A stretch of DNA of 18,186 nucleotides from an uncultured bacterium (GCA_965612865.1 CBFDTJ010000026.1:1-18186); one strand, 5' to 3'. Positions 1,203 through 18,186 are shown, numbered from the stretch's first letter. Translations and numbers: made by a program. Notes: a model not told the origin generated them from the letters alone.

Positions 1203-1236
1203 AAAAGGGAGGCTTCTGCCTCCCTTTTTATTTTTT
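1203..1236. terminator. Bidirectional rho-independent terminator between convergent transketolase and Mo-hydroxylase genes
   Basis: AAAAGGGAGGC-ttct-GCCTCCCTTTT is a perfect 11-bp stem with A-tract before and T-tracts after. It lies between the stops at 1201 and 1235. Confidence 0.9.
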
Positions 1237-3565
1237 ATACCCTTTCCTTTAAAAGTTTAAATACCCTTTCTGGAGTAAATGGTGCTTCTTTCAACCTAAT
1301 CCCTACCGCGTCATACACTGCATTGGAAATTGAGGGTAATGCACCATTTATATTTACCTCTGCAACGGACTTTGCTCCAAATGGTCCGGTAGGTTCATAG
1401 GTTGGAACAAACTTTACCACAATTTCTGGTAGGTCAAGAGATGTGAAGATTTTATAGTCAAAGAATGTGGGATTTGTTGATGAACCTGTTCTTGTGAATT
1501 TTAATTCCTCAGTTAAGGCGTATCCGAGACCGTTAACTATTGCTCCCATAGCCTGACCTCTTGCAAGTTTTGGATGTATAACAACTCCAGCATCTATAAC
1601 TGCCACATACTTCACCGGTATAATCTTTCCAGTTTCTGTATCCACATCAACGAGAACAAAGTGAGCGGCAAATGGAGGAGGGGATTTGGGAGAAACATGA
1701 GATCCTACTCCTATCAGGTGTTCCTGCTTCTCCTCATAATAACTCTTAAGTCCTATCTCTTTGTATGTTATACTCTTTCCACTCTTTTTGCTTATGACAG
1801 TTGAATCCATAATATAAAGATTATCTGGATCCTCTTTGAGTAATTTCGCCGCATAATTTATGATCTTGGTCTTTAGGTCTTTAGCGGCCTTTAGGACAGC
1901 TCCACCAGAAATGTAGGTGGTACTTGATGCGTATGCGCCAGTATCAAAAGGAGTGAAATCTGTATCTGATGAATAAACAAAGAAGTTCCTGTAATCTGTC
2001 TTTAATTCCTCTGCTGCAATCTGTGCAAGAACTGTATCTGAACCTGTTCCTATATCTGTTGCACCTGCAAAGAGCTGAAAACTTCCATCGTCGTTCATTC
2101 TTATTTCACAGGATGCCATATCTATTAAAGGTATACCAGATCCCTGCATGAGTATAGCCATACCCACTCCTCTAATGTATGATCCTTTTTTAACTTTCTT
2201 GTTTCTCCATCTATCCCATTCTATCTCCTTCTTTCCTATTTCAATACATTTATCCAGAGCACAGCTTTCAATGATTTGAGGTATTCCCTCCCTGCCTTCT
2301 CCGAGTTTTTCAAATATGGGAGATGTTTCACCCTCTTTTATGTGATTTCTCTTTCTAAATTCCACTGGATCAATACCCATTTTTTCGCTAAGTTCATCTA
2401 TGGCAGTTTCAAGAGCAAAATAAGCCTGAGTTGCACCATATCCTCTGTATGCGCCAGCAATGGGAAGGTTGGTGTACACTGCATCTCCAACAAATCTTAC
2501 ATTCTTTGCCTTGTTGTATATGGGAAGAGACTTGCTGCCAACATTAAATAGAACAGTAGGTCCATGTGTACCATAGGCTCCTGTGTTTAAAACAACTTTC
2601 ATGTCTATTCCTGTAAGGATACCTGAGGAGTCAGCGCCAAGTCTTATGTAAATCTTTGATGGATGTCGTGTTCTTGCGGAAACAAACTCCTCTCTTCTTG
2701 TATATTCCATCCTTACAGGTCTTTTTGTTCTTAATGTCATAAGAGCGCATATATCCTCAAGCACTATCTCCTGTTTTGTGCCAAACCCTCCACCAATTCG
2801 AGGTTTAACGACCCTTATGTTGTTGATGGAAATTCCAAGTATCTGTGAAATTATTCTTCTTACATGGAAAGGAACCTGAGTTGCGCTTCTTATCACCAGT
2901 CTATTATTTTCGTCAAGATATGTTATGGTTACATGTGTTTCCATGGGCACATGCTGAGCATACTGGGTTTTTGTATAGTATCCTTCAATTTTAAAGTCTG
3001 CATTCTTTATGGCCTTATCAACGTCTCCTATCTCTATTTCAACATGTGAAACTATGTTTCTTTCCTTGTTGTAAATTCCAGTGCTTTCGTCTTCGTCATG
3101 AATAACTGGTGCACCTTCTTTCATTGCCTCCTCTGGATCAAAGACTGACGGTAAATTTTTGTATTTAACCTTTATAAGTTTCAGTGCCTCCTCGGCAATT
3201 TCTGGAGTTTCAGCACCCACAGCAGCAACCCTGTCACCTACAAATCTTACCTTCCTATCAAAGATAAAGGCGTCATAAGGTGATGGTTCTGGATAACCCT
3301 GACCGGCAGTGGTATGAGGTATCCTTGGAGTATTCTTGTATGTGAGAACTATTTTAACACCAGGGAGTTTTTCTGCCTCAGTTGTATCAATGTCAATTAT
3401 CTCTGCATGTGGAAAGGGACTGGTCAGAAGTTTTGCATGAATCATGTCAGGGAGATTGATGTCATCTGTGAAGAGTGGTTGTCCTGTGGCAAGGGCAAGC
3501 CCATCGTATTTCTCTACACTATCCCCTACAACTTTCAATTCTTCCTTTTTATCCTTTTTAGACAT
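1235..3565 (-). CDS. Xanthine dehydrogenase/aldehyde oxidoreductase family molybdopterin-binding large subunit (XdhA/XdhD-like)
   Basis: Motifs QHVPMET, GGGFGTKQ, GAYG, AYRGYGATQ, DIGTGSDT, YASSTT and GAKSVAE (catalytic Glu). Start reassigned to ATG 3565 (MSKKDKK) because AGGAGGA lies at 3571-3577 and it overlaps the upstream stop. Confidence 0.93.
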   Translation of the reverse strand: MSKKDKKEELKVVGDSVEKYDGLALATGQPLFTDDINLPDMIHAKLLTSPFPHAEIIDIDTTEAEKLPGVKIVLTYKNTPRIPHTTAGQGYPEPSPYDAFIFDRKVRFVGDRVAAVGAETPEIAEEALKLIKVKYKNLPSVFDPEEAMKEGAPVIHDEDESTGIYNKERNIVSHVEIEIGDVDKAIKNADFKIEGYYTKTQYAQHVPMETHVTITYLDENNRLVIRSATQVPFHVRRIISQILGISINNIRVVKPRIGGGFGTKQEIVLEDICALMTLRTKRPVRMEYTRREEFVSARTRHPSKIYIRLGADSSGILTGIDMKVVLNTGAYGTHGPTVLFNVGSKSLPIYNKAKNVRFVGDAVYTNLPIAGAYRGYGATQAYFALETAIDELSEKMGIDPVEFRKRNHIKEGETSPIFEKLGEGREGIPQIIESCALDKCIEIGKKEIEWDRWRNKKVKKGSYIRGVGMAILMQGSGIPLIDMASCEIRMNDDGSFQLFAGATDIGTGSDTVLAQIAAEELKTDYRNFFVYSSDTDFTPFDTGAYASSTTYISGGAVLKAAKDLKTKIINYAAKLLKEDPDNLYIMDSTVISKKSGKSITYKEIGLKSYYEEKQEHLIGVGSHVSPKSPPPFAAHFVLVDVDTETGKIIPVKYVAVIDAGVVIHPKLARGQAMGAIVNGLGYALTEELKFTRTGSSTNPTFFDYKIFTSLDLPEIVVKFVPTYEPTGPFGAKSVAEVNINGALPSISNAVYDAVGIRLKEAPFTPERVFKLLKERV

Positions 3566-4034
3566 TTTCTTCCTCCTTGAGCAACTTGATAGCTTTTTCA
3601 ACAGCTTCTATCTGCTGAACATAACCTGTGCATCTGCAAAGATGTCCTGAAAGAGCCTTTTTAATATCCTCCCTTGTGGGATCTGGATTTTCATCAAGTA
3701 GCGCTTTCATGGATAGTATTATTCCAGGAATGCAGTAGCCACATTGCACGGCGCCTTCTTCCACGAAGCTTTTCTGTAGTGGATGTGGTTTCTCCATATC
3801 TCCTATTCCTTTGATTGTGATAACGCTTCTATCTTTAACTCTTCCTGCAAGTATAGTGCATGAAGGAACAGGTACTCCATCAAGTAGAACTGTACAAGCA
3901 CCACACTCACCTGTCTTGCAGTTGTTTCCTTTAACTTCTGTGTGTCCATTCCTCCTTAGAAGTTCAAATAGTGATTCTCCAGGGTAGGCATCAAATTCAA
4001 CATATTCGCCATTTAATTTAAACTTTATCTTCAT
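3558..4034 (-). CDS. 2x[2Fe-2S] small subunit of Mo-hydroxylase (CoxS/XdhC-type)
   Basis: CKTGECGAC...C and QCGYC...CRCTGY cysteine motifs. Start overlaps the upstream stop (ATGA). Confidence 0.95.
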   Translation of the reverse strand: MKIKFKLNGEYVEFDAYPGESLFELLRRNGHTEVKGNNCKTGECGACTVLLDGVPVPSCTILAGRVKDRSVITIKGIGDMEKPHPLQKSFVEEGAVQCGYCIPGIILSMKALLDENPDPTREDIKKALSGHLCRCTGYVQQIEAVEKAIKLLKEEENV

Positions 4035-4879
4035 ATTTCCTCCCTTATGCTCATCAGATTCCTGTTGGTTAAAACCCCGCTTAATTCTCTTCTGTAATCT
4101 CCTGATATCCTCATGTCATCTGCCACTTTTACAGTTTCCATCACAAGTTCCTTTGCTTTTCCTATAACTTCATCTGTGAGCGTCTTACCGAGTAAGAAAT
4201 CCTCAACATCTTCCATCCTTATAGGACCAAAGGGTCTTGCGCCGATGACAACTATTGCATCTTCCACCTTCTTCTCTTTGTCAAATTTCAAAAGCATACC
4301 CTCATCTAATAGTGGAATATCTGCGCTTGTCCTGGTGAATCTTATATATGAAAAATGGTATGATGGATCAAACTTGTCTATCCTTACTTCCTTTATTATG
4401 GCTTCGTCCAGGAATTCCTCAATTTCAACCCGCATAAATTCTGAAAGTTTCATTTCCTTTTCTTCCCCTGTAAATATAACAAGTGATGCATCAAGGGTTA
4501 AAAGAATTGCAGTAATATCTGACCACGGATAGTTTCTTGCCACACTTCCACCAAAACTTATTACATTTCTTATAATGGGAGTTGCAATCTCAGAGAAAAC
4601 TTTCGTTAGTTTGCCTTTAAATAACTTCCCAACCACTAAGGACTTTTGAGCTTCACCGATGGTAGTTTTAGCACCAATCTTTATCCTTTTCTCATCTTCC
4701 TCTATATAGGAGAGACCAAGATTTTCAAGATCTATAAGGCATTCAACACTTTTCGGACTCCTCCATATGATGTCAAGTCCACCTCCCACAACTCTTGCAG
4801 ATTTACCCTTCTTTTTGAGCAAATCTAAAGCCTCGTTTAAAGACTCTGGATAAAGATACTCCTTTACATTTTTTAACAT
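4031..4879 (-). CDS. FAD-binding medium subunit of Mo-hydroxylase (CoxM/XdhB/YgfM-like)
   Basis: YLYPESLNEAL, VGGGLD, IGAKTT, IRN..FGGS, SD...L..LDA and DDMRISGDYRR motifs. SD AAGGAGGAA upstream. Confidence 0.9.
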   Translation of the reverse strand: MLKNVKEYLYPESLNEALDLLKKKGKSARVVGGGLDIIWRSPKSVECLIDLENLGLSYIEEDEKRIKIGAKTTIGEAQKSLVVGKLFKGKLTKVFSEIATPIIRNVISFGGSVARNYPWSDITAILLTLDASLVIFTGEEKEMKLSEFMRVEIEEFLDEAIIKEVRIDKFDPSYHFSYIRFTRTSADIPLLDEGMLLKFDKEKKVEDAIVVIGARPFGPIRMEDVEDFLLGKTLTDEVIGKAKELVMETVKVADDMRISGDYRRELSGVLTNRNLMSIREEI

Positions 4880-5796
4880 TCTTCCTCCTTTCTCTTCATA
4901 AACTCATAAATCTCTCCTTTAGAAGGTATGTATACCCCGAGTTTTGTTGTAGATAAAGCTCCAGATAGGTTTGCGAACTCAAGTGAATCCTTCAGGTTAG
5001 CTGATTCAAGATACTTGTATACAAAAGATGCATTAAAGACATCCCCTGCTCCTGTAGTATCCACTGATTTTACCGGTATTCCAGAGAAGACTATTTTTTC
5101 TTCCTGTGTAATCAACATTGCACCCTTTTCACCCATTTTAATTACAAAAAACTTTCCTTCATCTATAAGTTTATACTTAAATTCCTCCTTAATCAAAGAA
5201 AACTCCCTTAAATTTGAAAAAATTACATTGCTTCTCTCCATAAGATAATAAACTGCATCGATAAATCCATCTATTTCCTCCCCTATTCTTATCTGTGTGT
5301 CAAAAAATACCCTTATCTCTTTTTTGCTTATGAAATCAACTACTTCTCTTAACCTTTTCTGGGAAGCTTTACTTGTTAAAATTCCTCCTGAGATATACAC
5401 AGCTGAAAGGCTTGAAAAGTTTATCTCTTTCAGTTTTCCAACATTTATTTCTTCGTATGATACATCTTTAATGCCAGCAAATGTTGTTCTCTCCCCCTGT
5501 TCGTTTACTATAGCTACAATAAGTGCCGTTTTTTTATTTACTCTGTCAATAAAATCTTTCCGAACTTTGAAAAAATCAAGATGTTTCTCAATAATGGATG
5601 AGAAGGTATCGTTCCCTAAAGGAGTGAAATAAAAAACTTCGTATCCAAGATTGGAAAGTGCACAGGAAAAATTAACACCTGTGCCAGCAGGTGTAACCTT
5701 TATATCCTCTGGAACTATATTTTTGTCCCTCTCAAACTGAAAATTTCCTTTTATAGTGATGTCAACGCAGTTATCACCAATCACTAAAATTTGCAT
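4873..5796 (-). CDS. PfkB/ribokinase-family carbohydrate kinase
   Basis: IGDNCVD N-terminus, AGTGVNFSCALSNLG (PfkB signature 1), GND.F, GERT, NLRE (NxxE), K.GEKGA, DTTGAGDVF (signature 2 with catalytic Asp). Confidence 0.93.
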   Translation of the reverse strand: MQILVIGDNCVDITIKGNFQFERDKNIVPEDIKVTPAGTGVNFSCALSNLGYEVFYFTPLGNDTFSSIIEKHLDFFKVRKDFIDRVNKKTALIVAIVNEQGERTTFAGIKDVSYEEINVGKLKEINFSSLSAVYISGGILTSKASQKRLREVVDFISKKEIRVFFDTQIRIGEEIDGFIDAVYYLMERSNVIFSNLREFSLIKEEFKYKLIDEGKFFVIKMGEKGAMLITQEEKIVFSGIPVKSVDTTGAGDVFNASFVYKYLESANLKDSLEFANLSGALSTTKLGVYIPSKGEIYEFMKRKEEEC

Positions 5797-6455
5797 TCTC
5801 TCACCCTCTTAACAAAAAGCTCCACCTTTTTAATATCTTTCCTTCCATTACCTTCTGGAATGTCAAGAGAAGTTTTTGCATCAACTCCAGATGGCTTTAC
5901 CCTTTTTATAGCTTTGCATACATTCTCAGGCGAGAGGCCTCCTCCAAGAATAACAGGTTTTTTTACACTCTCAACGATTTTTCTACTTATATTCCAGTCA
6001 TGGGTCTTTCCTGTAGCACCAATAAAACCAGGCATCTGCTTACTCTCTCCAGGCGTATCAAGAATAAAGGAATCCACAAGGTCATCAAACAAGATAGCCT
6101 TCTCTATGGATTCCTCTCCTGAAACAGGTATAGCGAGAAGTATCTTACTCTTTACACTCTCTCTAAGTTTAATGAGGTATTCTCTCTCCACCTCGTAGCA
6201 TATGTGTAAGTAATCTGGTTTTATAAGCTCTATAGCAGGAACTATCTCCTCTATCTCCTTCACATCAAGGATAAGGCTTGTTTCTCTCCCCTGTTCTCTT
6301 ATGGAACTTATAAGTTCCTTTGCCTTCATGTAAGAGACAATTCCTTTCTCTACATCTCCATTTTTTGAGGTTACAATCCCCAATCTGTCCACTCCAAGCT
6401 CACACAATTTTTCTGCATCATGTAGATTGTTTATTGCGTAAATTTGAATTAACAT
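5784..6455 (-). CDS. Phosphoribosylanthranilate-isomerase-like (TrpF-fold) TIM-barrel protein, divergent paralog
   Basis: TrpF-type motifs ILDT, GATGKTHDW, ILGGGLSPENV, P.GVD and G.KD..K...F. The N-terminal KICG catalytic motif reads QIYA. No other trp gene is in the window. Confidence 0.85.
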   Translation of the reverse strand: MLIQIYAINNLHDAEKLCELGVDRLGIVTSKNGDVEKGIVSYMKAKELISSIREQGRETSLILDVKEIEEIVPAIELIKPDYLHICYEVEREYLIKLRESVKSKILLAIPVSGEESIEKAILFDDLVDSFILDTPGESKQMPGFIGATGKTHDWNISRKIVESVKKPVILGGGLSPENVCKAIKRVKPSGVDAKTSLDIPEGNGRKDIKKVELFVKRVRECKF

Positions 6456-6464
6456 AACAATTCT

Positions 6465-6494
6465 ATTTTAAGGCGTAGCCGTTACCCTTGTCAA
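6465..6494 (-). promoter_or_regulatory. Sigma70-type promoter for the trpF-like/pfkB/xdh operon (TTGACA-18-TAAAAT)
   Basis: Minus strand TTGACA (6494-6489), 18-nt spacer, TAAAAT (6470-6465), 9 nt before the ATG at 6455. Confidence 0.7.
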
Positions 6495-6504
6495 TTTTTA
6501 AATC

Positions 6505-6534
6505 TTGACAAGGAAAGTCAAGGAATTATAAAAT
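6505..6534 (+). promoter_or_regulatory. Sigma70-type promoter for the ABC transporter operon (TTGACA-18-TAAAAT)
   Basis: TTGACA 6505-6510 and TAAAAT 6529-6534 (alternative TATAAA 6527-6532). SD AAGGAGGTG precedes ATG 6567. Confidence 0.7.
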
Positions 6535-6566: not shown

Positions 6567-7772
6567 ATGAAAAAAATTGGTGGGATTCTGGCAATCTTGA
6601 TGATTGTCCTCCTCCTATTTACTTCCTTTGCCATTTCATGCGCCCCCAAGGAAGAGAAACCACAAGAACAGCAACCGGCAGAAACCCAGGAGAAGAAAAT
6701 TAAAGCAGGTTTTATCTATGTTGGACCAATAGGAGATTATGGATGGACAAATGCCCACGATGTTGGAAGGAAGTATGTAGAGGAAAAATTCCCGTGGCTT
6801 GAGACAGTTTATGTTGAGTCAGTTCCAGAAGGTGATGCCGCAAGAGTTATTGACAGATTGATAAACGAAGAGAAATGCAATGTTATCTTCACAACAAGTT
6901 TTGGTTACATGGATGACACTATTAAAGCTGCAGAGAAATATCCAGATGTAATATTTGAGCATTGTTCTGGTTATAAGAGAGCAAAGAATTCAGGCACTTA
7001 CTTTGCTGAGCTTTATCAGATGTACTATCTTAATGGTTTGATGGCAGGAGCTCTAACAAAGACAAATAAAGTTGGATATGTTGGCGCTCACCCAATACCT
7101 GAAGTTGTAAGACACATAAATGCTTATGCTCTTGGTGTAAAAGAGGTGAATCCAGATGCAAAGGTTTATGTAAGATGGCTGTTCTCATGGTATGATCCAG
7201 CAAAGGCAAGAGAAGCTGCTGAGTCATTAATAGCTGAGGGTGTAGATTGTCTTGCCTTTACAGAGGATTCAACAGCTGTCATTGAAGTTGGACAGGAACA
7301 CACAAAGAAAGGACAGCAGATATACACATTCTCTCACTACAGTCCTATGCAGAAGTTTGGACCAGATACAGTGGTCTCCGGTCAGCTGGTGGACTGGGGA
7401 ATAATGTACGAGGAAATCTTAAGAAGAGTATATACAAACACATGGGATAATAGAGATTATTGGTGGCTTGCAAAAGAGGGAGCATGCGAACTTGGAGGCG
7501 AATTTGGCACTCCAATAAATCCAAAGTTCATAGATGAACTTAAATCAAAGATGGTAAAGGATCCAATACTTGGTGAGATAAGTGTGTATGATCTAATTAT
7601 GAAGAGATTAGAACAGATGAAGGAGCCAACAATTCTATTTGATCCATTCACCGGACCAATTTATGATCAAAATGGCACAATGAGGCTCAAACCAGGAGAA
7701 AGAGGAAGCCACGATCTTTTGTGGAGCATAGATTGGTTTGTTGATAATGTAGAGGGAGAGATTCCAAAGTAG
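6567..7772 (+). CDS. BMP-family (PnrA/Med-like) ABC transporter substrate-binding lipoprotein, nucleoside/nucleobase type
   Basis: Signal peptide MKK-hydrophobic with lipobox-like AISC (Cys25). Motifs GFIYVGPIGDYGW, IFTTSFGY, YL.G..AG..TKTN.VG, IPEV.R.INAYALG and WYDP.K. Strong SD. Confidence 0.93.
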   Translation: MKKIGGILAILMIVLLLFTSFAISCAPKEEKPQEQQPAETQEKKIKAGFIYVGPIGDYGWTNAHDVGRKYVEEKFPWLETVYVESVPEGDAARVIDRLINEEKCNVIFTTSFGYMDDTIKAAEKYPDVIFEHCSGYKRAKNSGTYFAELYQMYYLNGLMAGALTKTNKVGYVGAHPIPEVVRHINAYALGVKEVNPDAKVYVRWLFSWYDPAKAREAAESLIAEGVDCLAFTEDSTAVIEVGQEHTKKGQQIYTFSHYSPMQKFGPDTVVSGQLVDWGIMYEEILRRVYTNTWDNRDYWWLAKEGACELGGEFGTPINPKFIDELKSKMVKDPILGEISVYDLIMKRLEQMKEPTILFDPFTGPIYDQNGTMRLKPGERGSHDLLWSIDWFVDNVEGEIPK

Positions 7773-7790
7773 CCAGTGGATATTATATAC

Positions 7791-7817
7791 AAAGAGGGGG
7801 GAATTCTCCCCCTCTTT
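7791..7817 (+). terminator. Stem-loop after the binding-protein gene (partial terminator or mRNA stabiliser)
   Basis: AAAGAGGGGG-gaattct-CCCCCTCTTT is a perfect 10-bp stem followed by AGTATTTTT. Confidence 0.75.
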
Positions 7818-7842
7818 AGTATTTTTATAAAAGGGGTGAGAT

Positions 7843-9414
7843 TTGAAGCCAAAGAGAAGGAATACACTTCATTCTCAGGGGGGTAAAAAAATAGAATTAC
7901 TGGAGATGAAAAATATCTATAAAAAGTTTCCTGGAGTCATAGCCAATGACAATGTAAACCTTGATGTAGAAGGTGGAGAGATACACGCACTTCTTGGGGA
8001 GAATGGGGCTGGTAAGACAACTTTGATGAACATCCTCTATGGAATTTATCAGCCTGATAGGGGAGAAATTTATATAAACGGAAAGAAGGTAACCATAAGA
8101 TCCCCAAGAGATGCAATAGAACTTGGAATAGGTATGGTCCATCAACATTTTATGCTTATTCCAACTCATACAGTGGCAGAAAACATATCCCTGGGGTTTA
8201 AAGAAGCTCCTTTCTTCTATCCCACAAGAGTTATTGAGGAAAGAATATGTGATTTTACAGATAGGTATGGACTTAAAATAAATCCAAGAGCAAAAATATT
8301 GCAGCTTTCTGCTGGAGAACAGCAGAGGGTAGAGATTATAAAGACTCTCTTCAGAGGTGCAAGCCTGCTTATCCTTGATGAGCCGACTTCTGTTCTTACT
8401 CCTCAGGAGACAGAGGAGCTTTTCTCAATACTCAAAAGACTGGTGGAGGAAAAACATTCTGTAATCTTCATTACCCACAAACTTGAGGAGGTTATGGAGA
8501 TAAGTGACAGAGTTACAGTTTTAAGAAAGGGAAAGGTTATTGCCACAGTAAAAACAAAGGATACCAGCAAGAAAGAGCTTGCAAGAATGATGGTTGGAAG
8601 AGAGGTTATTTTTCAGCTTGAGAGGAAAAAAATAGAAAAGGGTGAGGAGGTTCTTAAAGTTAAAGATCTCTTTGTAGAAAACGACAGGGGTCTTATGGCT
8701 GTTAAGGGAGTTTCCTTTAACGTTCATAAAAATGAAATTTTTGGAATTGCTGGAGTTGCTGGAAACGGTCAGAGAGAGCTGGTGGAAGCAATAACAGGAT
8801 TGAGAAGAGTAAAGAGTGGGAAAGCGGAAATTCTGAATGTTGATGTTACAAACTCTTCTCCAAAAAGAATTGGAGATATAGGCGTTGCACATATCCCTGA
8901 AGAGAGAATTAGATTTGGAATAGTTCCCAATTTATCTGTATACGAAAATGCAGTTCTACGAGACTATTACCATGAACCATTCTCAAAGGGTTCATTCCTT
9001 AATTATCCCTATATAAAAGAACACACTAAAAAGCTTGTAAGGGAGTTCTCCATTGATACTCCCTCCATAGAAACTCCAGTGAAACTTCTATCAGGTGGAA
9101 ATATACAGAAGTTAATTCTTGCGAGGGAAATCTCTACAAAGTCAAATCTGATAATTGCTGCTCACCCCACCTATGGACTTGATGTTGCAGCAACAGAGTA
9201 TATAAGAAAACTGCTTTTAAAAAAGCGAGAGGAGGGTGCAGCTATTCTTCTTGTCTCGGAGGATTTAGAAGAGATATTTGAACTGAGTGACAGGATTGCA
9301 GTAATGTTTGAGGGGAAGTTTATGGGTATCGCTCCAAGAGAGAAGACAAGTCTTCAGGACATAGGTTTAATGATGGCAGGTTCGAAGACATTGGAGGAAA
9401 AGGATGAAGATTAA
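7843..9414 (+). CDS. CUT2/nucleoside-type ABC transporter ATP-binding protein with two fused NBDs (start uncertain: TTG 7843, ATA 7891 or ATG 7906)
   Basis: Walker A GENGAGKTT, LSAGEQQR, ILDEPT and ITHKL. Second domain has degenerate GVAGNGQRE, LSGGNIQK and PTYGLD. Confidence 0.95.
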   Translation: MKPKRRNTLHSQGGKKIELLEMKNIYKKFPGVIANDNVNLDVEGGEIHALLGENGAGKTTLMNILYGIYQPDRGEIYINGKKVTIRSPRDAIELGIGMVHQHFMLIPTHTVAENISLGFKEAPFFYPTRVIEERICDFTDRYGLKINPRAKILQLSAGEQQRVEIIKTLFRGASLLILDEPTSVLTPQETEELFSILKRLVEEKHSVIFITHKLEEVMEISDRVTVLRKGKVIATVKTKDTSKKELARMMVGREVIFQLERKKIEKGEEVLKVKDLFVENDRGLMAVKGVSFNVHKNEIFGIAGVAGNGQRELVEAITGLRRVKSGKAEILNVDVTNSSPKRIGDIGVAHIPEERIRFGIVPNLSVYENAVLRDYYHEPFSKGSFLNYPYIKEHTKKLVREFSIDTPSIETPVKLLSGGNIQKLILAREISTKSNLIIAAHPTYGLDVAATEYIRKLLLKKREEGAAILLVSEDLEEIFELSDRIAVMFEGKFMGIAPREKTSLQDIGLMMAGSKTLEEKDED

Positions 9415-10471
9415 AGTAGAAAGAAGAGGTGAGATATCCCCCAAGAAAAGATTTGTATACCTTATTCTTTCTTTGATAATTGGTTTTCTCATTGGTGGTC
9501 TTATATTTCTGTTCAAAGGTATAAACCCCTTTTATGCTCTTCAAAAGATATTTGTGGGTTCCTTTGGAAGTATTTATGGATGGAAAGAGACAATAACAAA
9601 GGCAATTCCACTTATGCTCTGTGGTATAGGTCTTACCCTCGCTTTTAAAGGGAAATTCTGGAACATTGGAGCAGACGGTCAACTTTTGTTTGGTGCACTT
9701 CTTGCCACATGGATAGGGCTTTCACTTGGAAAGACATACCCTGCCTTTGTGGTTTTACCCCTCATGTTTGTTGGTGGATTTATATCAGGAGCTTTCTGGG
9801 GAATTATCCCGGCTATTATGAAGGTTAAACTGGGGATTAATGAAGTTATTACAACTCTCATGCTTAACTACATAGCTGAGCAATTTATACAGTATCTTGT
9901 TTATGGTCCATGGAAAGGAAAAACCCAGTATGGATTTCCGTACACAGACAACTTTTCAGCCTCAGCAACACTCCCTGTTATAAAAGGTACAAGGATTCAC
10001 TATCCAACACTTATTATAGGTATTATTCTTGCCATACTCATTTACATATTTATTATGAAAACAAAGACAGGATACGAAATCAGAGTTATAGGAGAGAATC
10101 CCGAGGCAGCAAAGTATGCCGGGATAAATTTTTTAAAAACAACTATAATAATGATGGCTATAAGCGGTGGAATTGCTGGACTCGCTGGTGTGGGAGAAGT
10201 TGCAGGGATCCATCATCATCTTACCACACCAACTCAGATATCTTCAGGCTATGGATATACAGCAATAATTGTAGCATGGCTTGCAAGGCTAAATCCTTTA
10301 GTGGTTATTCTTTCCTCTATATTTTTTGGTGGTATTCTTGTTGGAGGAGATACCATTCAAACATCCATGGGTCTTCCTTTTGCCACAATCAATATATTTA
10401 ACGGACTGATACTCATATCTGTTATATCCATCAATTTCTTCCTTGAGTATAAAATTTCAATTAAGAGGTGA
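9404..10471 (+). CDS. Nucleoside-type ABC transporter permease 1 (BPD_transp_2 family)
   Basis: Hydrophobic. Motifs WNIGADGQ, NEVITTLMLNY, GYEIRVIGENPEAAKYAGI and GYGYTAIIVAWLA. Overlaps the ATPase stop. Confidence 0.93.
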   Translation: MKIKVERRGEISPKKRFVYLILSLIIGFLIGGLIFLFKGINPFYALQKIFVGSFGSIYGWKETITKAIPLMLCGIGLTLAFKGKFWNIGADGQLLFGALLATWIGLSLGKTYPAFVVLPLMFVGGFISGAFWGIIPAIMKVKLGINEVITTLMLNYIAEQFIQYLVYGPWKGKTQYGFPYTDNFSASATLPVIKGTRIHYPTLIIGIILAILIYIFIMKTKTGYEIRVIGENPEAAKYAGINFLKTTIIMMAISGGIAGLAGVGEVAGIHHHLTTPTQISSGYGYTAIIVAWLARLNPLVVILSSIFFGGILVGGDTIQTSMGLPFATINIFNGLILISVISINFFLEYKISIKR

Positions 10472-10475
10472 GAAA

Positions 10476-11408
10476 ATGGGAGGATATGAATTTTTAATTA
10501 TATCTGTTCTAAAAAGGACCCTTGTCGCGGGAACTCCGCTTCTTCTTGGAACACTTGGAGAGATATATGCAGAGAGATCTGGAGTTTTAAATCTTGGTGT
10601 TGAGGGCTTAATGGCTATCGGTGCAGTTTCAGGTTTTGGAGTGGCACTTGTTACTGGAAACCCATGGCTTGGACTGCTTGCTGCTGCAGTATTCGGTGCA
10701 ATTCTTTCTCTGGTTCATGCCTTTGTAAGTGTTACATTAAAGTCAAATCAAATTATATCTGGACTTGCCCTCACCATGCTTGGTCTTGGTATAAGCGGAC
10801 TCTGGGGAAAGGCATATATAGGTATTCCATTAACTACAAAATTTGAGTCAGTAAAGATACCAATACTCTCAAAGATTCCTTATGTGGGGGAGATTCTGTT
10901 TCATCAGGATCCAATATTTTACATATCTGTCATAGCTGGAATTGTTATGTGGTTTATCCTTTTTAAAACAGAGGTGGGAATAAATATAAGGTCTGTGGGG
11001 GAGAATCCTCTTGCTGCAGATGCCATGGGAGTAAATGTTTATAAGACAAGGTATGTGTGTGTTATTATCGGCGGAGTGCTTGCAGGTGTTGCAGGAGCGC
11101 ACCTATCCCTTGCCTACATACCTTCGTGGATAGAGGGTATGACGGGAGGTAGAGGATGGATAGTGATAGCTCTCACAATATTTGCACTCTGGAATCCTTT
11201 GAGAGCTATGCTTGGAGCCTATCTATTTGGTGGAATTTATGTATTGCAATACCTCCTTCAACCTATAGGGATACCACCAAACATTCTTCTTATGTTCCCG
11301 TATCTTGCAACGCTTTTTGTCCTTCTCGTAAGCGCGCAGGAGACATTTAGGAAGAGAATGGGAGCTCCCAGGTCTCTGGGTGTTCCCTATGACAAAGAAG
11401 AGAAGTGA
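10476..11408 (+). CDS. Nucleoside-type ABC transporter permease 2
   Basis: TPLLLGTLGE..ERSGVLNLGVEG, IRSVGENP.AA..MGVNV, GRGWI and P..LG.PY motifs. Start reassigned to ATG 10476 (SD GAGGTG 10465-10470). Confidence 0.93.
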   Translation: MGGYEFLIISVLKRTLVAGTPLLLGTLGEIYAERSGVLNLGVEGLMAIGAVSGFGVALVTGNPWLGLLAAAVFGAILSLVHAFVSVTLKSNQIISGLALTMLGLGISGLWGKAYIGIPLTTKFESVKIPILSKIPYVGEILFHQDPIFYISVIAGIVMWFILFKTEVGINIRSVGENPLAADAMGVNVYKTRYVCVIIGGVLAGVAGAHLSLAYIPSWIEGMTGGRGWIVIALTIFALWNPLRAMLGAYLFGGIYVLQYLLQPIGIPPNILLMFPYLATLFVLLVSAQETFRKRMGAPRSLGVPYDKEEK

Positions 11409-11914
11409 AGTAGTTTGATGGAGGCGGCAGAGAATAAGTAAACAAAAATTCCCTTGACAAAATCAAGGGGTAGAAATGGCAAAGAGCCTATTAAAAATGC
11501 CTTTGATAGGCTAATTTTCAAATTAAAAGATAAATAAGTAATCCCCAGAAGATGAATTTCCAGTATGGCTAAGATGATTCCAAATATAAGAAGTTTTTTA
11601 TTTTTTCTGTTTAGGGAACCTATAACAACAGGGGCAATTAAAAATCCGAGAAGATAGCCACCTGTTGGGCCAAGGAGGGCAGACAGACCAGCCTGCCCTC
11701 CTGCAAATACAGGAAAACCAAGAATCCCTAAAATTTCATACATTAAAACTGATAGAAAACCAAAGTATGGCCCCAGCATAACTCCTGACAGGAGAACAAA
11801 GAACAGCTGAAGGGTTAGTGGAACAGGGGTAAAGGGAAAGGGGATGGAGATGTAGGAGCCAATTACTATAAGAATGGAGAAAAGTGAGGAGAAAACGAGA
11901 TTCCTTAACTTCAT
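11387..11914 (-). CDS. bioY: Biotin transporter BioY (ECF S-component)
   Basis: PVPLTLQ, G.PVFAGG..G, GPTGGYLLGF and PF..D..K motifs. About 6 TM segments. Lies directly downstream of a biotin-dependent decarboxylase. Confidence 0.92.
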   Translation of the reverse strand: MKLRNLVFSSLFSILIVIGSYISIPFPFTPVPLTLQLFFVLLSGVMLGPYFGFLSVLMYEILGILGFPVFAGGQAGLSALLGPTGGYLLGFLIAPVVIGSLNRKNKKLLIFGIILAILEIHLLGITYLSFNLKISLSKAFLIGSLPFLPLDFVKGIFVYLFSAASIKLLHFSSLS

Positions 11915-11917
11915 ATA

Positions 11918-13051
11918 TTAATGTCCAAGAAGGGTTATCATAACTCCAGCAACTACAGCAGTTCCTATAACTCCAGCAACATTAGGACCCATAGCGTGCA
12001 TTAAGAGGAAGTTTCCAGGGTTCTCCTCCTGTCCAACTCTCTGAGAAACTCTTGCAGCCATAGGTACTGCAGATACACCTGCTGAACCAATGAGAGGATT
12101 TACCTTTCCTCCAGTTACCCAGTAGAACACTTTTCCAAGCAGGACTCCTCCTGCTGTTCCTCCTATGAAGGCAACGAGTCCAAGAACTATAATTCCTATG
12201 GTTTTTGCAGTTAAGAACCTTTCGGCAGTCATTGTGGAGCCAACAGTGGTGGCAAGAAATATGGTTACGATGTTTATAAGTTCGTTTGCAGCAGTATTTT
12301 TCAGTCTTTCCACCACACCGCTCTCTCTAAACAGATTTCCAAGCATAAGCATTCCAATTATTGGTGCCACTGCAGGGAAGAGCAAACTTATAACTATGGT
12401 AACCACTATAGGGAAGAGTATCTTTTCTGTCTTTGAAACAGGTCTTAACTGTTCCATAACAACAGTTCTTTCCTTTTTGGTTGTAAATAGTCTCATGATA
12501 GGAGGTTGAATGAGGGGAACGAGGGACATATAAGTGTACGCAGCAACTGCTATAGGACCGAGAAGATGGGGGGCGAGTTTTACCGCAGTATAAATCGATG
12601 TTGGTCCATCTGCTCCTCCTATTATTCCAATGGATGCTGCTTCCATCATGTTGAAGCCAAGAAGTAATGCTATTATCAGGGCAATAAAAACTCCAATCTG
12701 TGCTGCTGCACCGAGAAGTATGGTCCATGGATTTGCAATAAGAGGTCCAAAGTCTGTCATGGCTCCAATCCCCATAAATATAAGTAGCGGGAATATTTCA
12801 GTTTCTATTCCAGCTTTGTAGAGATAATAGAACAGACCGCCTGGATGAATTCCATGAGGTTCAGAGATTAACCCTGCAAGGGGAAGATTTGCAAGTATAC
12901 AGCCAAACCCTATGGGCATAAGTAAAAGAGGCTCGAACTTTTTCGCTATTGCAAGATAGATAAGAAAAGCCCCAACTCCAATCATTATCAATTCTCCCCA
13001 GGTCAGGGAGAGAACTCCACTCATGGAGAGAAGGCTTCCTAATGAGCCCAT
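11918..13051 (-). CDS. mmdB: Na+-translocating decarboxylase beta subunit (OadB/MmdB/GcdB family)
   Basis: [58 protein letters not shown] and [12 protein letters not shown] motifs. Confidence 0.95.
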
Positions 13052-13053
13052 TA

Positions 13054-13470
13054 TTAGCCTCCAATCTCTATTTCAACTAAAGGTTCTCCTGTTTCTACAT
13101 TCTGTCCAGTAGAAACATGAACGGCTTTAACAACTCCATCTTCTGCTGCAAATATTTCGTTTTCCATCTTCATGGCTTCAAGAACAAGGAGAATATCGCC
13201 TTTCTTTACTGCCTTTCCAGGAGATACATTGACGGTTAGTACCTTTCCCGGAAGTGGTGCAGATACAACAGTAACTCCTTCAGCTACCTTTACCTTTTTG
13301 GTTTCTTTCTTTACAGGCTGGGCTGGTGGGGGAGTGGAGACTGGAACAGTTGGAACTTCCCTTTTGACCTCCTTTACCTCTTTTACCTGGGGAGTCTTTG
13401 ACTCTCCTATTTCTTCAACAATAACTTCAAAAGTTTCTCCATCTACAGTTACTCTAAACTTTTTAGCCAT
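13054..13470 (-). CDS. mmdC: Biotin carboxyl carrier (gamma) subunit of Na+-translocating decarboxylase
   Basis: EAMKMENEI biotinylation motif, Pro-rich linker and N-terminal FRVTVDG. Start reassigned to ATG 13470 (SD AGGTGGA; overlaps upstream stop). Confidence 0.92.
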
Positions 13471-13834
13471 TCTTCCACCTCTTTGTTTTAATTTTTGAAG
13501 ATACTTTTCTTCCAACTATCTCTTTCACTCTCCAGAAATTTAGACCTTCACCAGTGGGTCCTATAAATCTTGTCTTTACTTCTTCATAAGCTGAAAGTGC
13601 TGCAGCAATTGCAGCTATTTTTCTTAATTTACTTCTCTTATCCTCTTTCTCTTTCTTTGGAGCTAAAACAGGACCTGTCTGTTTAACTTCTTCCTTTCCC
13701 CCTTCCTTTTCTGGATGATAGAAGATTAATTTGAACATTACCAGCACGAAACCAAGAAAAGCAAGTACTCCAAATACTATTGCTACTGCTACAATTGTGA
13801 ATTTTAGACCTTCCCATATAGAAGTTATCTCCAT
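13463..13834 (-). CDS. mmdD: OadG/MmdD-family membrane anchor (delta) subunit
   Basis: Single N-terminal TM with IVF.VL..L, charged linker, IAAIAAAL motif and C-terminal W...GR. Lies between the alpha and gamma genes. SD AGGAGGA. Confidence 0.85.
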   Translation of the reverse strand: MEITSIWEGLKFTIVAVAIVFGVLAFLGFVLVMFKLIFYHPEKEGGKEEVKQTGPVLAPKKEKEDKRSKLRKIAAIAAALSAYEEVKTRFIGPTGEGLNFWRVKEIVGRKVSSKIKTKRWKNG

Positions 13835-13843
13835 CTTTTCCTC

Positions 13844-15391
13844 CTAAAGAGGCATATTTCCATGTTTTTTCTCTGGTAAGCTTTCGCTCTTACTTCTTAA
13901 GAAATCAAGTGCTTCTGCTATTTTCTTTCTTGTAAATTTTGGATCTATAACATCATCAATGTATCCTCTCTCAGCTGCCCTGTAAGGATTTGCGAACATA
14001 TCTCTAAACTCTTTAATCTTTTCCTTTCTCATCTCTTCGGGATTCTCTGCTGCCTTTATGTCTTTTCTGAAGATTATCTCAGCTGCTCCCTCTGCTCCCA
14101 TAACTGCAATCTCTGCTGTGGGATAGGCATAGACAACATCAGCACCAAGATGACGGGAACACATGGCAATGTATGCTCCTCCATAGGCTTTTCTTAAGAT
14201 AACTGTAATCTTTGGAACTGTGGCTTCTGAATAGGCATAGAGAAGTTTTGCTCCGTGTCTTATAACTCCTCCGTGTTCCTGATTTACTCCCGGGAGATAA
14301 CCAGGGGTATCTGTGAATGTAACAAGGGGAATGTTAAATGAATCACAGAATCTCACGAATCTTGCAGCTTTATCAGATGAATTTATATCAAGAACTCCTG
14401 CAAGATACTTTGCCTGATTTGCGACAATTCCAACGCTTCTTCCACCGATTCTTGCGAATCCAACAACAATGTTTGGAGCGTATAGAGCATGAACTTCAAG
14501 GAACTCTCCGTTGTCAACTACTCTTCTTATAATGTCCTTAACATCGTAAGATTTTGATGGATCTGTTGGAACTATATCTCTTAATTCATCATCTGCTCTA
14601 TCAATGGGATCGTCTGTTTCAACCATGGCCGGCTCCTGAAGGTAGTTATCTGGAATGTAAGATAGAAGTCTCTTTGTAATTTCTATGGCATCTTCATCAG
14701 TCTTTGCAAGGAAATGAGCATTACCACTTCTCTGGTTGTGGACAAGTCCACCACCAAGTCCTTCGTGACTTATCTCCTCTCCTGTCACTGCTTTGACAAC
14801 ATTTGGTCCTGTGATATACATTGTTGCCTTCTCTGTCATAATTATGAAATCCATAATTGCCGGGGAATAAACTGCTCCTCCAGCTGTAGGTCCCATATTG
14901 ATGGATATCTGTGGGATAACTCCGGATGCTCTTGTGTTTCTGAAGAATATTTCTCCGTACCCAAAGAGTGAGTCAACACCTTCCTGGATTCTTGCTCCAC
15001 CAGAGTCGTTCATACCAATAAATGGAATTCCAAGTTTCATTGCAAGGTCCTGCATCTTTACTATTTTCAATGCGTGCATTTCACCAAGAGATCCACCAAG
15101 TGTTGTAAAATCCTGAGCATAGAGAGCTACTCTTCTTCCATTGACAGTTGCCACACCTGTTATGATTCCATCTCTTGGAATAAACATTTTGTCAAGACCA
15201 AAGTAGGTGCTTCTTGTTTTTACAAATTCTCCAAACTCTGTGAAGGAGCCGGGATCAACGAGGAGTTCAATTCTTTCCCATGCAGTTAATTTTCCTTTCT
15301 TGTGCTGTTTCTCAACCTTTTCAGGGCCTCCACCCTCTTCTATTTTCTTCCGCTTCTCCTCCAGCTCTTTCAAAAGATCTTTACTTTCCAT
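13844..15391 (-). CDS. mmdA: Acyl-CoA carboxyltransferase; methylmalonyl-CoA decarboxylase alpha subunit-like
   Basis: GKLTA.ERI..L.DPGSF, GGSLGE, DSGGARIQEG, GGAVYSPA, KAARFVRFCD, QEHGG.IRHGAK, KAYGGAY and KKHGN.PL motifs. SD AGGAGGT. Confidence 0.92.
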   Translation of the reverse strand: MESKDLLKELEEKRKKIEEGGGPEKVEKQHKKGKLTAWERIELLVDPGSFTEFGEFVKTRSTYFGLDKMFIPRDGIITGVATVNGRRVALYAQDFTTLGGSLGEMHALKIVKMQDLAMKLGIPFIGMNDSGGARIQEGVDSLFGYGEIFFRNTRASGVIPQISINMGPTAGGAVYSPAIMDFIIMTEKATMYITGPNVVKAVTGEEISHEGLGGGLVHNQRSGNAHFLAKTDEDAIEITKRLLSYIPDNYLQEPAMVETDDPIDRADDELRDIVPTDPSKSYDVKDIIRRVVDNGEFLEVHALYAPNIVVGFARIGGRSVGIVANQAKYLAGVLDINSSDKAARFVRFCDSFNIPLVTFTDTPGYLPGVNQEHGGVIRHGAKLLYAYSEATVPKITVILRKAYGGAYIAMCSRHLGADVVYAYPTAEIAVMGAEGAAEIIFRKDIKAAENPEEMRKEKIKEFRDMFANPYRAAERGYIDDVIDPKFTRKKIAEALDFLRSKSESLPEKKHGNMPL

Positions 15392-17243: not shown

Positions 17244-18116
17244 CTATTTAACTTCTTTATTTTCTTTTCTCCTTCTGTAGATAAGGTAAATTATGTAAAT
17301 CAGGATAAGCCATGGAGTTAGCCATGCAAGGACTATGATTATTACGAAAATTGACATTACAAATCCATTTAAGGCTCTGTTTAAAGCATCAAGTATTCTT
17401 CTAATGATTGGGGGAACTACACCGGGCTTTTCACCTTTCTCTCTAATACTAATAGTGATTTGAGAAAAGTCAGTATGGAAGGAGATATAATTCATTCTTC
17501 CCTTAATCTTTTCTATCTCTGTCTCAATTTTATCAAGTTCACTTCTTATGGATAGCATGTCCTTTATATCTTTTGCATCACTTAGCCACGAGAGGAGTAA
17601 ATCTCTCTGCGATTCAAGAACCTTGAGCCTTGAGGAGAGATCCACATACTCTCCTGATAGATCCTTGGAGTTTATAGAGATATTTTCCACTTCTCCAAAA
17701 TCTGAGATTTTATCTATAAAGTTATCAAAGCCCTTTGATGGCACTAAAACCGTAATATTTCCGAAATAGCGATTATTCTGTCTGTAAAAGTTTGAATTAG
17801 AGACAAAGCCAGAGAAACTTTTAACTGTAAATGTTATCTTGTTCCATATATCCATAAATTTTCCCTCCTCCACAACAAGTTCCACTGCACCGTTTTTTAT
17901 AATCTTTAGACCAAAATTTTCTTCTTGGTATGAATTCTCACCTACTAAAGTTAAATTTAAATCTTGGAGTTTCTCTTCCTCTAATCCAGAGAATCCTTCG
18001 CCTTTCTCTCTAAATTCTGTTAGTAGTGGCATGTTTCCAGGTAGATAGAAAAAACCACCAATATTTGAGAGAATAAAGTATCCTCCCACCACACCCATAC
18101 AAAGAACCACTATAAG
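17244..18116 (-). CDS. DUF4349-like membrane-anchored coiled-coil protein (5'-truncated)
   Basis: IIK...L.V, T..VP...F..F, DL...YVD..RL..L, L.I..EL.....IE..KG...Y...FS.ITI pattern, then a C-terminal TM and basic tail. N-terminal MIRRPPRSTPKPSSAASDVYKRQ is translated adapter. Confidence 0.8.
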   Translation of the reverse strand, partial: LIVVLCMGVVGGYFILSNIGGFFYLPGNMPLLTEFREKGEGFSGLEEEKLQDLNLTLVGENSYQEENFGLKIIKNGAVELVVEEGKFMDIWNKITFTVKSFSGFVSNSNFYRQNNRYFGNITVLVPSKGFDNFIDKISDFGEVENISINSKDLSGEYVDLSSRLKVLESQRDLLLSWLSDAKDIKDMLSIRSELDKIETEIEKIKGRMNYISFHTDFSQITISIREKGEKPGVVPPIIRRILDALNRALNGFVMSIFVIIIVLAWLTPWLILIYIIYLIYRRRKENKEVK

Positions 18117-18186
18117 CTGTCTCTTATACACATCTGACGCTGCCGACGAAGGCTTAGGTGTAGATCTCGGTGGTCGCCGTATCATT
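18117..18186 (-). other. Illumina Nextera adapter artefact: mosaic end (18117-18135), read-1 arm, i5 index CTAAGCCT (18150-18157) and P5
   Basis: Exact CTGTCTCTTATACACATCT-GACGCTGCCGACGA-AGGCTTAG-GTGTAGATCTCGGTGGTCGCCGTATCATT. Confidence 0.99.

Follow-up and report, generated by a model that had tools for sequence, protein, structure and literature searches.

A widespread TrpF-like clade without the catalytic cysteine and its partnership with PfkB-family kinases

TrpF serves as a model of how enzymes evolve; its catalysis is attributed to an Asp/Cys pair with D126 as the acid (PMC9088769). The Chlamydia trachomatis TrpF was kept after the loss of trpC and trpD and acts on another phosphoribosylamine; in this new role it depends on RibA and is still active as a PRA isomerase (PMC4161248). 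Related barrels have been recruited to nucleoside pathways, PriA being the case treated (PMC13055916).

The locus compared here with these systems lies in a window of 18,186 nt (the whole stretch of DNA analysed) from an uncultured bacterium, and encodes a TrpF-like protein with Tyr at the position of the catalytic Cys (Table 1). The clade to which it belongs, named QIY, is a large natural Cys-less clade, under selection and annotated trpF in public sources. A literature search, mostly outside subscription journals, returned no description of the QIY clade or of a TrpF-PfkB module.

Table 1. Positions of the TrpF-like gene, its active-site codons and the neighbouring features in the window.
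Feature	Coordinates	Strand	Basis or remark
QIY-clade TrpF-like (beta/alpha)8 protein, 223 aa	5784..6455	(-)	ORF, Pfam PRAI, fold, tree
Tyr6 codon (TAC), position of TmTrpF Cys7	6438..6440	(-)	profile alignment to 1lbm
His84 codon, position of TmTrpF Gln81	6204..6206	(-)	alignment; coordinate counted from ORF start
Asp133 codon, general acid Asp126	6057..6059	(-)	alignment; coordinate counted from ORF start
Lys194 codon, position of TmTrpF Ser180	5874..5876	(-)	alignment; coordinate counted from ORF start
PfkB-family kinase, 307 aa, conserved partner	4873..5796	(-)	Pfam PfkB 133 bits
Xanthine-dehydrogenase-like molybdoenzyme, three subunits	1235..4879	(-)	directly downstream of kinase; below XdhABC cut-offs
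Molybdoenzyme FAD subunit	4031..4879	(-)	
Molybdoenzyme 2Fe-2S subunit	3558..4034	(-)	
Molybdoenzyme Mo subunit	1235..3601	(-)	
Sigma-70-like promoter, 11/12	6465..6494	(-)	ends 9 nt before TrpF-like ATG; hexamers kept in G001, G002
Divergent sigma-70-like promoter of the ABC transporter genes, 11/12	6505..6534	(+)	hexamers kept in G001, G002
BMP/PnrA-type ABC transporter (binding protein, ATPase, two permeases)	6567..11408	(+)	divergent from TrpF-like gene

Fold and active site of the TrpF-like protein

The TrpF-like ORF contained no internal stops in translation, and its dN/dS of 0.08-0.13 against two congeners indicated purifying selection, with values similar to those of the adjoining kinase and FAD-subunit genes. 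The protein passed the Pfam PRAI model (PF00697; 63.7 bits for a gathering cut-off of 22.7) and reached none of the 13 TrpF-type NCBIfam cut-offs (best: 85.7 vs 215 bits, equivalog); it is a member of PF00697 outside the TrpF equivalog. An AlphaFold model built from 56 sequences had a pLDDT of 96.3, and its best structural match was T. maritima TrpF (1nsj; Z 26.2, rmsd 2.1, 203 aligned residues, 26% identity), the first non-TrpF fold appearing at Z 19.7. The top 11 VIA-align rows for the model were TrpF or TrpCF, Foldseek was concordant, and the ESM Atlas returned solely PRAI-labelled clusters. A phage collection held seven weak matches (24-28% identity) in unannotated records.

The active site was compared with that of T. 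maritima TrpF (TmTrpF) in a profile alignment, with residue numbers counted along its 1lbm row. In beta-1 and beta-2, K5, C7 and R36 correspond to Q4, Y6 and G38; further on, Q81 and H83 become H84 and C86, and D126 is retained as D133. The loops GGSGKTFDW and SGGL read GATGKTHDW and GGGL, and in the C-terminal part D178, S180, S181 and E184 align with D192, K194, T195 and D198. This alignment bears out much of the preliminary description of this DNA, which had read QIYA for KICG with Tyr6 in place of Cys (TAC at 6440-6438), HICY for QLHG and GVDAKTSLD (including Lys194) for GVDVSSGVE, and had listed Asp133, the G-x-TG-x2-DW loop and GGL as kept. It contradicts one point: the S-x-R loop after beta-2, described as missing, is present with three additional residues and carries an invariant Gly38 at the position of TmTrpF Arg36. 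Arg36 and His83 of TmTrpF are presumably anthranilate-side residues, and Gly38 and Cys86 stand in their places.

Among 32 close homologues (47-95% identity, the named loci all belonging to Caldisericota), H84, C86, D133 and K194 were invariant, and Y6 was found in all sequences except one that is N-truncated (31/32). With a wider profile search, 268 hits could be aligned, a set skewed towards the query; position 6 was Tyr in 116 of them, Cys in 42, Ala in 75 and another residue or a gap in 35. Across this wider Tyr group, Q4 (99%), D133 (99%), H84 (90%) and D192 (100%) were conserved, with 46% for C86 and 40% for K194; the initial emphasis on Cys86 and Lys194 as marked changes thus holds for the query and for Caldisericia and fails in the wider group. 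The family-wide conserved set comprised Q4, Y6, G26, H84, D133, the TG-x2-DW loop, GGL, D192, T195 and K206. Because the altered residues are conserved in the clade and dN/dS is low, the active-site changes are not drift or error. Judged from the alignments, Y6 and H84 are conserved in the manner of catalytic residues, and either could take the role of base; the changed chemistry first proposed is a possibility at this stage. Lys194 aligns to Ser180, a position variable across the clade, and is therefore a weak catalytic candidate.

A separate clade outside the tryptophan pathway

A tree (IQ-TREE, LG+G4) was built on a 49-sequence subsample with 30 Tyr-group, 15 Cys-type and 4 Ala-type sequences; two trp fusions and a TrpF encoded next to trpA were among the Cys-type ones. 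All 30 Tyr-group sequences, including one with Phe at position 6 (P0129), formed the single QIY clade (SH-aLRT 99.1/UFBoot 100) apart from the Cys- and Ala-type sequences; the TrpF-like protein did not cluster with Cys-type TrpF, in line with the divergence first proposed for it. Members came from Caldisericota, Bathyarchaeota, Anaerolineae, Erysipelotrichaceae, Andersenbacteria, Rhizobiaceae, Mesorhizobium and the haloarchaeon Halostella. Among 93 genomes of the phylum, 18 carried a QIY-clade gene and three carried other PRAI proteins. The QIY protein is not described by its current label: clade members are named phosphoribosylanthranilate isomerase in public sources, as had been predicted for automatic annotation, and it is a real, widespread, misannotated enzyme variant. 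The trpF annotation of the clade can cause false tryptophan-pathway calls in auxotrophs. The term "paralog" used at first is apt for the family and misplaced within the own genome, where the gene is the sole PRAI match.

Other TrpF-like proteins were recovered alongside. The Ala-type (QIAG) proteins, likewise without the Cys, formed a separate clade (99.8/99) with Ala at position 6 and a D-x-HTG motif; on sequence evidence their loss of the Cys is independent of that in the QIY clade. One Ala-type gene (L043:7992-8672) headed a Corynebacterium plasmid cluster with upp, an AMP-binding protein, a tautomerase and PsuG, which we take to be indigoidine-like. KICC-type TrpF-like genes occurred in two Caldisericota genomes without TrpA, convergent with a PfkB kinase (L034:403-1131, L035). 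TrpF-like domains were also fused to a metallo-beta-lactamase fold, Maf, 2-thiouracil desulfurase, HAD and Smr (L115:200-1684, P0166, P0250, P0269, P0065), and several of these fusions point to nucleotide housekeeping. A QIY gene at L061:5992-6192 ended after about 35 codons in unrelated sequence, possibly in a chimeric contig.

The own genome is 87.6% complete, and all 14 controls were positive in each trp-enzyme search. It gave no match to TrpA, IGPS (TrpC), the TrpD family or chorismate-binding enzymes (TrpE), and its TrpB-like match was below the cut-off (162.9 vs 392). TrpA above the cut-off was found in 0/18 Caldisericota carriers and in 2/93 genomes of the phylum, both non-carriers, and IGPS in 0/36 sampled genomes of the class. 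The gene had been called an orphan, and these searches agree, within the 87.6% of the genome covered and with TrpA found in no carrier; a trp operon lacking only trpF does not describe the own genome, as TrpA, IGPS and the TrpD family were not found either. On genomic grounds the TrpF-like gene is almost certainly not a working trp-pathway gene. That it serves as the physiological PRA isomerase of tryptophan synthesis would agree with the Pfam PRAI score, with TrpF as the closest fold and with the incompleteness of the genome, but is very improbable in view of the missing enzymes in the own genome, the carriers and the sampled class genomes, the TrpB-like match below its cut-off, and the separate clade.

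A folate bypass as in Chlamydia, in which the RibA product would be turned into dihydroneopterin monophosphate, has the precedent of an orphan TrpF (PMC4161248), and FolK is present. RibA was not found in the own genome or in 14 sampled relatives from families f1 and f2, whereas FolE was present in the own genome and in G001, and FolE2 in 5/5 f2 genomes tested; this bypass was rejected as the least probable of all the functions weighed.

Linkage to PfkB-family kinases

The PfkB kinase partnership of QIY TrpF-like genes is new here and was absent from the preliminary description. In the window the kinase gene overlaps the 3' end of the TrpF-like gene by 13 nt, and its product reached no NCBIfam equivalog cut-off. 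A PfkB gene follows the TrpF-like gene in 16/16 loci and in 18/18 Caldisericota carrier genomes, sets that overlap and consist of related genomes rather than independent observations. The molybdoenzyme genes downstream of the kinase were seen only in the own family of genomes, and unrelated genes (polX, uvrB, nadE) surround the pair in most Caldisericia.

No Shine-Dalgarno sequence was visible before the TrpF-like ATG, and the transcript is probably leaderless. The promoters at 6465-6534 stand back to back. Together their TTGACA hexamers make up an inverted repeat, TTGTCAA...TTGACAA, which is conserved in G001 and G002 and might serve as a common operator of the transporter genes and of the unit formed by the TrpF-like, kinase and molybdoenzyme genes. 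Elsewhere in the window, a transketolase-like ORF (32-1201) converges on the molybdoenzyme genes, and BioY and a sodium-pumping decarboxylase set (beta, biotin carrier, gamma, carboxyltransferase) occupy 11387-15391 (-). The corresponding gene at L001:13256-15556, also convergent with the molybdoenzyme genes, encodes a transketolase-like protein of 766 aa that is diverged in sequence, with 95.6 bits against the 682 set by the bacterial transketolase model. Positions 1-72 and 18117-18186 are, we assume, Nextera/Illumina adapter sequence, and similar ends were seen in most of 40 contigs examined from the own genome (G000); with adapter at both window ends, the N-termini of ORFs 32-1201 and 17244-18185 are therefore artefacts.

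Outside these genomes, a QIY-specific DNA pattern retrieved 120 metagenome loci, of which 114 were family members; flanks were available for 80 (75 members), and loci were counted as informative when at least 1.2 kb lay downstream, 34 of the 75 being too short. The sub-clades DSKT and long DSCT were drawn on the tree after the contexts had been seen. A PfkB gene was adjacent or in the cluster in 10/10 informative loci outside these two sub-clades (nine Pfam-confirmed, L086 by local profile only), and in 0/15 DSKT, 0/14 long DSCT and 0/2 unplaced informative loci. As two large QIY sub-clades are without PfkB (0/29), Tyr6 does not imply a kinase partner. Long DSCT genes (~255-300 aa; L060, L080, L092, L101, L114, L116) often lay upstream of efp and in divergent orientation to guaA; they had no kinase, nor did a Mesorhizobium DSKT member or a Limosilactobacillus fragment. 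On plasmids of Sinorhizobium medicae, Ensifer canadensis and Shinella, the QIY gene was found with RpiR, a sugar ABC transporter, a Met-gamma-lyase-like PLP enzyme and PfkB, while in Halostella it was followed by PfkB, a nucleoside hydrolase, an ADP-ribosylglycohydrolase and a BMP transporter.

Neighbour content was assessed on 125 selected neighbours, a subset of the ORFs. Kinase-linked loci included nucleoside hydrolase (4 loci), ADP-ribosylglycohydrolase (2) and an MTA/SAH-deaminase-like amidohydrolase (2), as well as a macro domain, a uridine-phosphorylase-like protein, BMP transporters, BtpA/SgcQ and GlmS-like SIS proteins.

The partner kinases fell into at least three groups and no single clade, which fits repeated recruitment; one co-inherited partner-kinase clade was not recovered in a tree with few outgroups. 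A kinase orthologue occurred in 32/93 genomes, 14 of which had no TrpF-like gene, often by clean deletion within the same gene order; there the kinase stood between polX and uvrB (8), upstream of molybdoenzyme genes (5) or beside psuG (1). The pair is therefore not obligatory. No carrier lacked the kinase (0/18), and this one-way dependence of the TrpF-like gene on the kinase fits an accessory enzyme. In a sister genus (L172:7040-10842), an inverted block stands where the TrpF-like gene would be, with a PASTA protein, rpe, an RHH/PemK pair, a ribokinase-like gene and a nucleoside hydrolase.

The gene order might be largely historical, with a TrpF-like protein that acts on, or simply binds, some phosphorylated metabolite to which the kinase has no connection. 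The kinase standing alone in 14/32 genomes and the kinase-free DSKT and long-DSCT sub-clades, the latter often between guaA and efp, speak for this; an archaeon and several bacterial groups remote from one another nevertheless show the link, their kinases belonging to different sub-groups, and all 18 carriers have the kinase, so that we regard a historical order as rather unlikely.

Candidate functions and comparison with known systems

The TrpF-like protein probably handles phosphorylated ribose-type compounds in nucleoside salvage. From gene order, its substrate is somewhat likelier than not the product of the partner kinase, a link that reduces the candidate substrates to a small panel. In the preferred reading, it would be a TrpF-fold, non-tryptophan enzyme forming the second step of a salvage module in which the kinase acts first. 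The adjoining PfkB kinase would phosphorylate a non-standard riboside, taken up from outside, at C5', and GGGL 171-174 and Thr195 would hold the phosphate as in TrpF; Asp133 would protonate the ring oxygen, opening the furanose. As Tyr stands in place of the Cys that removes the C2' proton, the ring-opened intermediate would be re-closed as the other anomer or hydrolysed, and ribose 5-phosphate and the aglycone would enter catabolism. This reading is supported because the acid and phosphate-site residues are kept while the Cys and anthranilate-side residues are changed, and because the neighbours are riboside-handling genes. Taken overall, furanose ring opening without Amadori rearrangement, as the residues suggest, is a tentative proposal with a less than even chance.

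A reverse-Amadori deglycase is a less probable but serious alternative. Here the kinase would phosphorylate a ketosamine (a ribulosyl- or fructosyl-amino acid) and the barrel would run the TrpF reaction backwards, with Tyr6 or His84 as base and Asp133 as acid, the Schiff base being hydrolysed to sugar phosphate and amine; such a protein would be a TIM-barrel analogue of FrlB/FraB. TrpF catalyses an Amadori rearrangement (PMC9088769), and FrlB works by isomerisation followed by Schiff-base hydrolysis (PMC10285752). Fructokinases are among the best PDB matches of the partner-kinase profile, and the conservation of Y6 and H84 would suit a base. The N-terminal GDNCVD motif of the partner kinase may resemble FrlD; on the fructoselysine 6-kinase (FrlD) model PRK09813, by contrast, the window kinase scored 36.4 vs 247 bits and did not reach the cut-off. 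The Rhizobiaceae cluster, with its sugar ABC transporter, RpiR and amino-acid lyase-like PLP enzyme, fits a deglycase better than nucleosides and, together with the SIS-domain neighbours (GlmS-like proteins near the QIY gene in L053, L070 and L117), suggests a conjugate of a sugar and an amino acid more than a nucleoside. Nucleoside genes nevertheless form the majority of neighbours, and the SIS proteins, where present, could themselves deglycate. Substrates may differ between QIY sub-clades.

An isomerase, epimerase or class I aldolase acting on a free sugar phosphate from the kinase, possibly via a Schiff base at Lys194, would account for the kept phosphate site, the invariant K194 in 32/32 Caldisericia sequences and the transketolase-like gene found nearby both in the window and in L099. 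It is an unlikely reading, as K194 is replaced by L, F, C, N or Y in other kinase-linked members and RpiB is present in 81/93 genomes, including the own genome and 17/18 carriers. Given this distribution of RpiB, the TrpF-like protein is no replacement for ribose-5-phosphate isomerase, and Lys194 (40% conserved) was ruled out as a family-wide Schiff-base residue. A ribose-1,5-bisphosphate isomerase analogue was also set aside: ribose-1-phosphate kinase models ranked high for some partners, all far below the cut-off. A house ribokinase as partner was rejected, a separate ribokinase-like gene lying with two nucleoside hydrolases on contig C7.

For Caldisericia, the preferred salvage reading would have pseudouridine 5'-phosphate or a relative as candidate, with the TrpF-like protein providing an accessory step before PsuG. 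PsuG was found in 33/35 genomes of the two kinase-bearing families, in 32/32 genomes with the kinase, which are related to one another, and in 18/18 carriers; its presence in all carriers rules out its replacement by the TrpF-like protein. In G011 (75% complete) the kinase gene is immediately preceded by psuG (416.8 bits), the sole adjacency seen. No PfkB lay within 1.5 kb of psuG in 22/23 loci of family f2 and in the own genome, where psuG follows ABC-transporter-like genes; in families without the partner kinase, psuG had its own PfkB in 6/7 loci. The partner kinase may thus be the pseudouridine kinase of its two families. It scored 23.7 vs 540 bits on the pseudouridine kinase model (PRK09850), far below the cut-off, and the own genome has five other PfkB matches. 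By eye, D12 and N42 of the window kinase match Asp16 and Asn45 of E. coli PsuK, ribose-binding residues according to PMC9247573, and Cys10 stands where PsuK has Asn14. Pseudouridine (or its 5'-phosphate) as the substrate in Caldisericia is a speculative suggestion with a low probability. Equally doubtful is the fuller idea that the kinase-linked QIY proteins are an undescribed ribotide ring-opening class whose Caldisericia member is a C-nucleotide anomerase. If true, the anomerase would convert alpha-pseudouridine 5'-phosphate, or a modified form, to the PsuG-cleavable beta form, a repair step in RNA-nucleoside recycling with the TrpF acid kept and the Cys base dropped. The literature found on pseudouridine kinase, PsuK and PsuG made no mention of "anomer". 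The function can be tested directly, as carriers exist in culture (Sinorhizobium medicae WSM419, Ensifer, Shinella, Halostella) with a transporter and regulator in the cluster.

Among known systems, PsuK and PsuG, as described in PMC9247573, share the kinase-first logic with a PfkB kinase proposed here; PsuG belongs to a family unrelated to the TrpF-like protein, and the partner kinase is not a PRK09850 member. FrlD/FraD with FrlB/FraB combine phosphorylation, acid/base isomerisation and Schiff-base hydrolysis, a chemistry possible for a TrpF barrel, but FrlB is a SIS-fold dimer using Glu/His (PMC10285752), whereas the protein here is a TrpF-type barrel with a kinase below the FrlD model. The Chlamydia trachomatis TrpF, likened by description, is also a TrpF-family protein without a trp pathway; here RibA was not found and FolE/FolE2 are present. 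TrpF itself (PF00697; 1nsj/1lbm) differs in the residues changed here (Cys7 to Tyr, Lys5 to Gln, Arg36 to Gly, Gln81 to His, His83 to Cys), and the TrpF-like protein is set apart by the missed equivalog cut-offs, its separate clade, the trp genes not found and its kinase partner. It shares with TrpF the fold, the general-acid Asp, GGL, D192/T195 and the G-x-(T/S)G-x2-(H/F)DW loop, and is akin to TrpF in fold and probably in ring opening.
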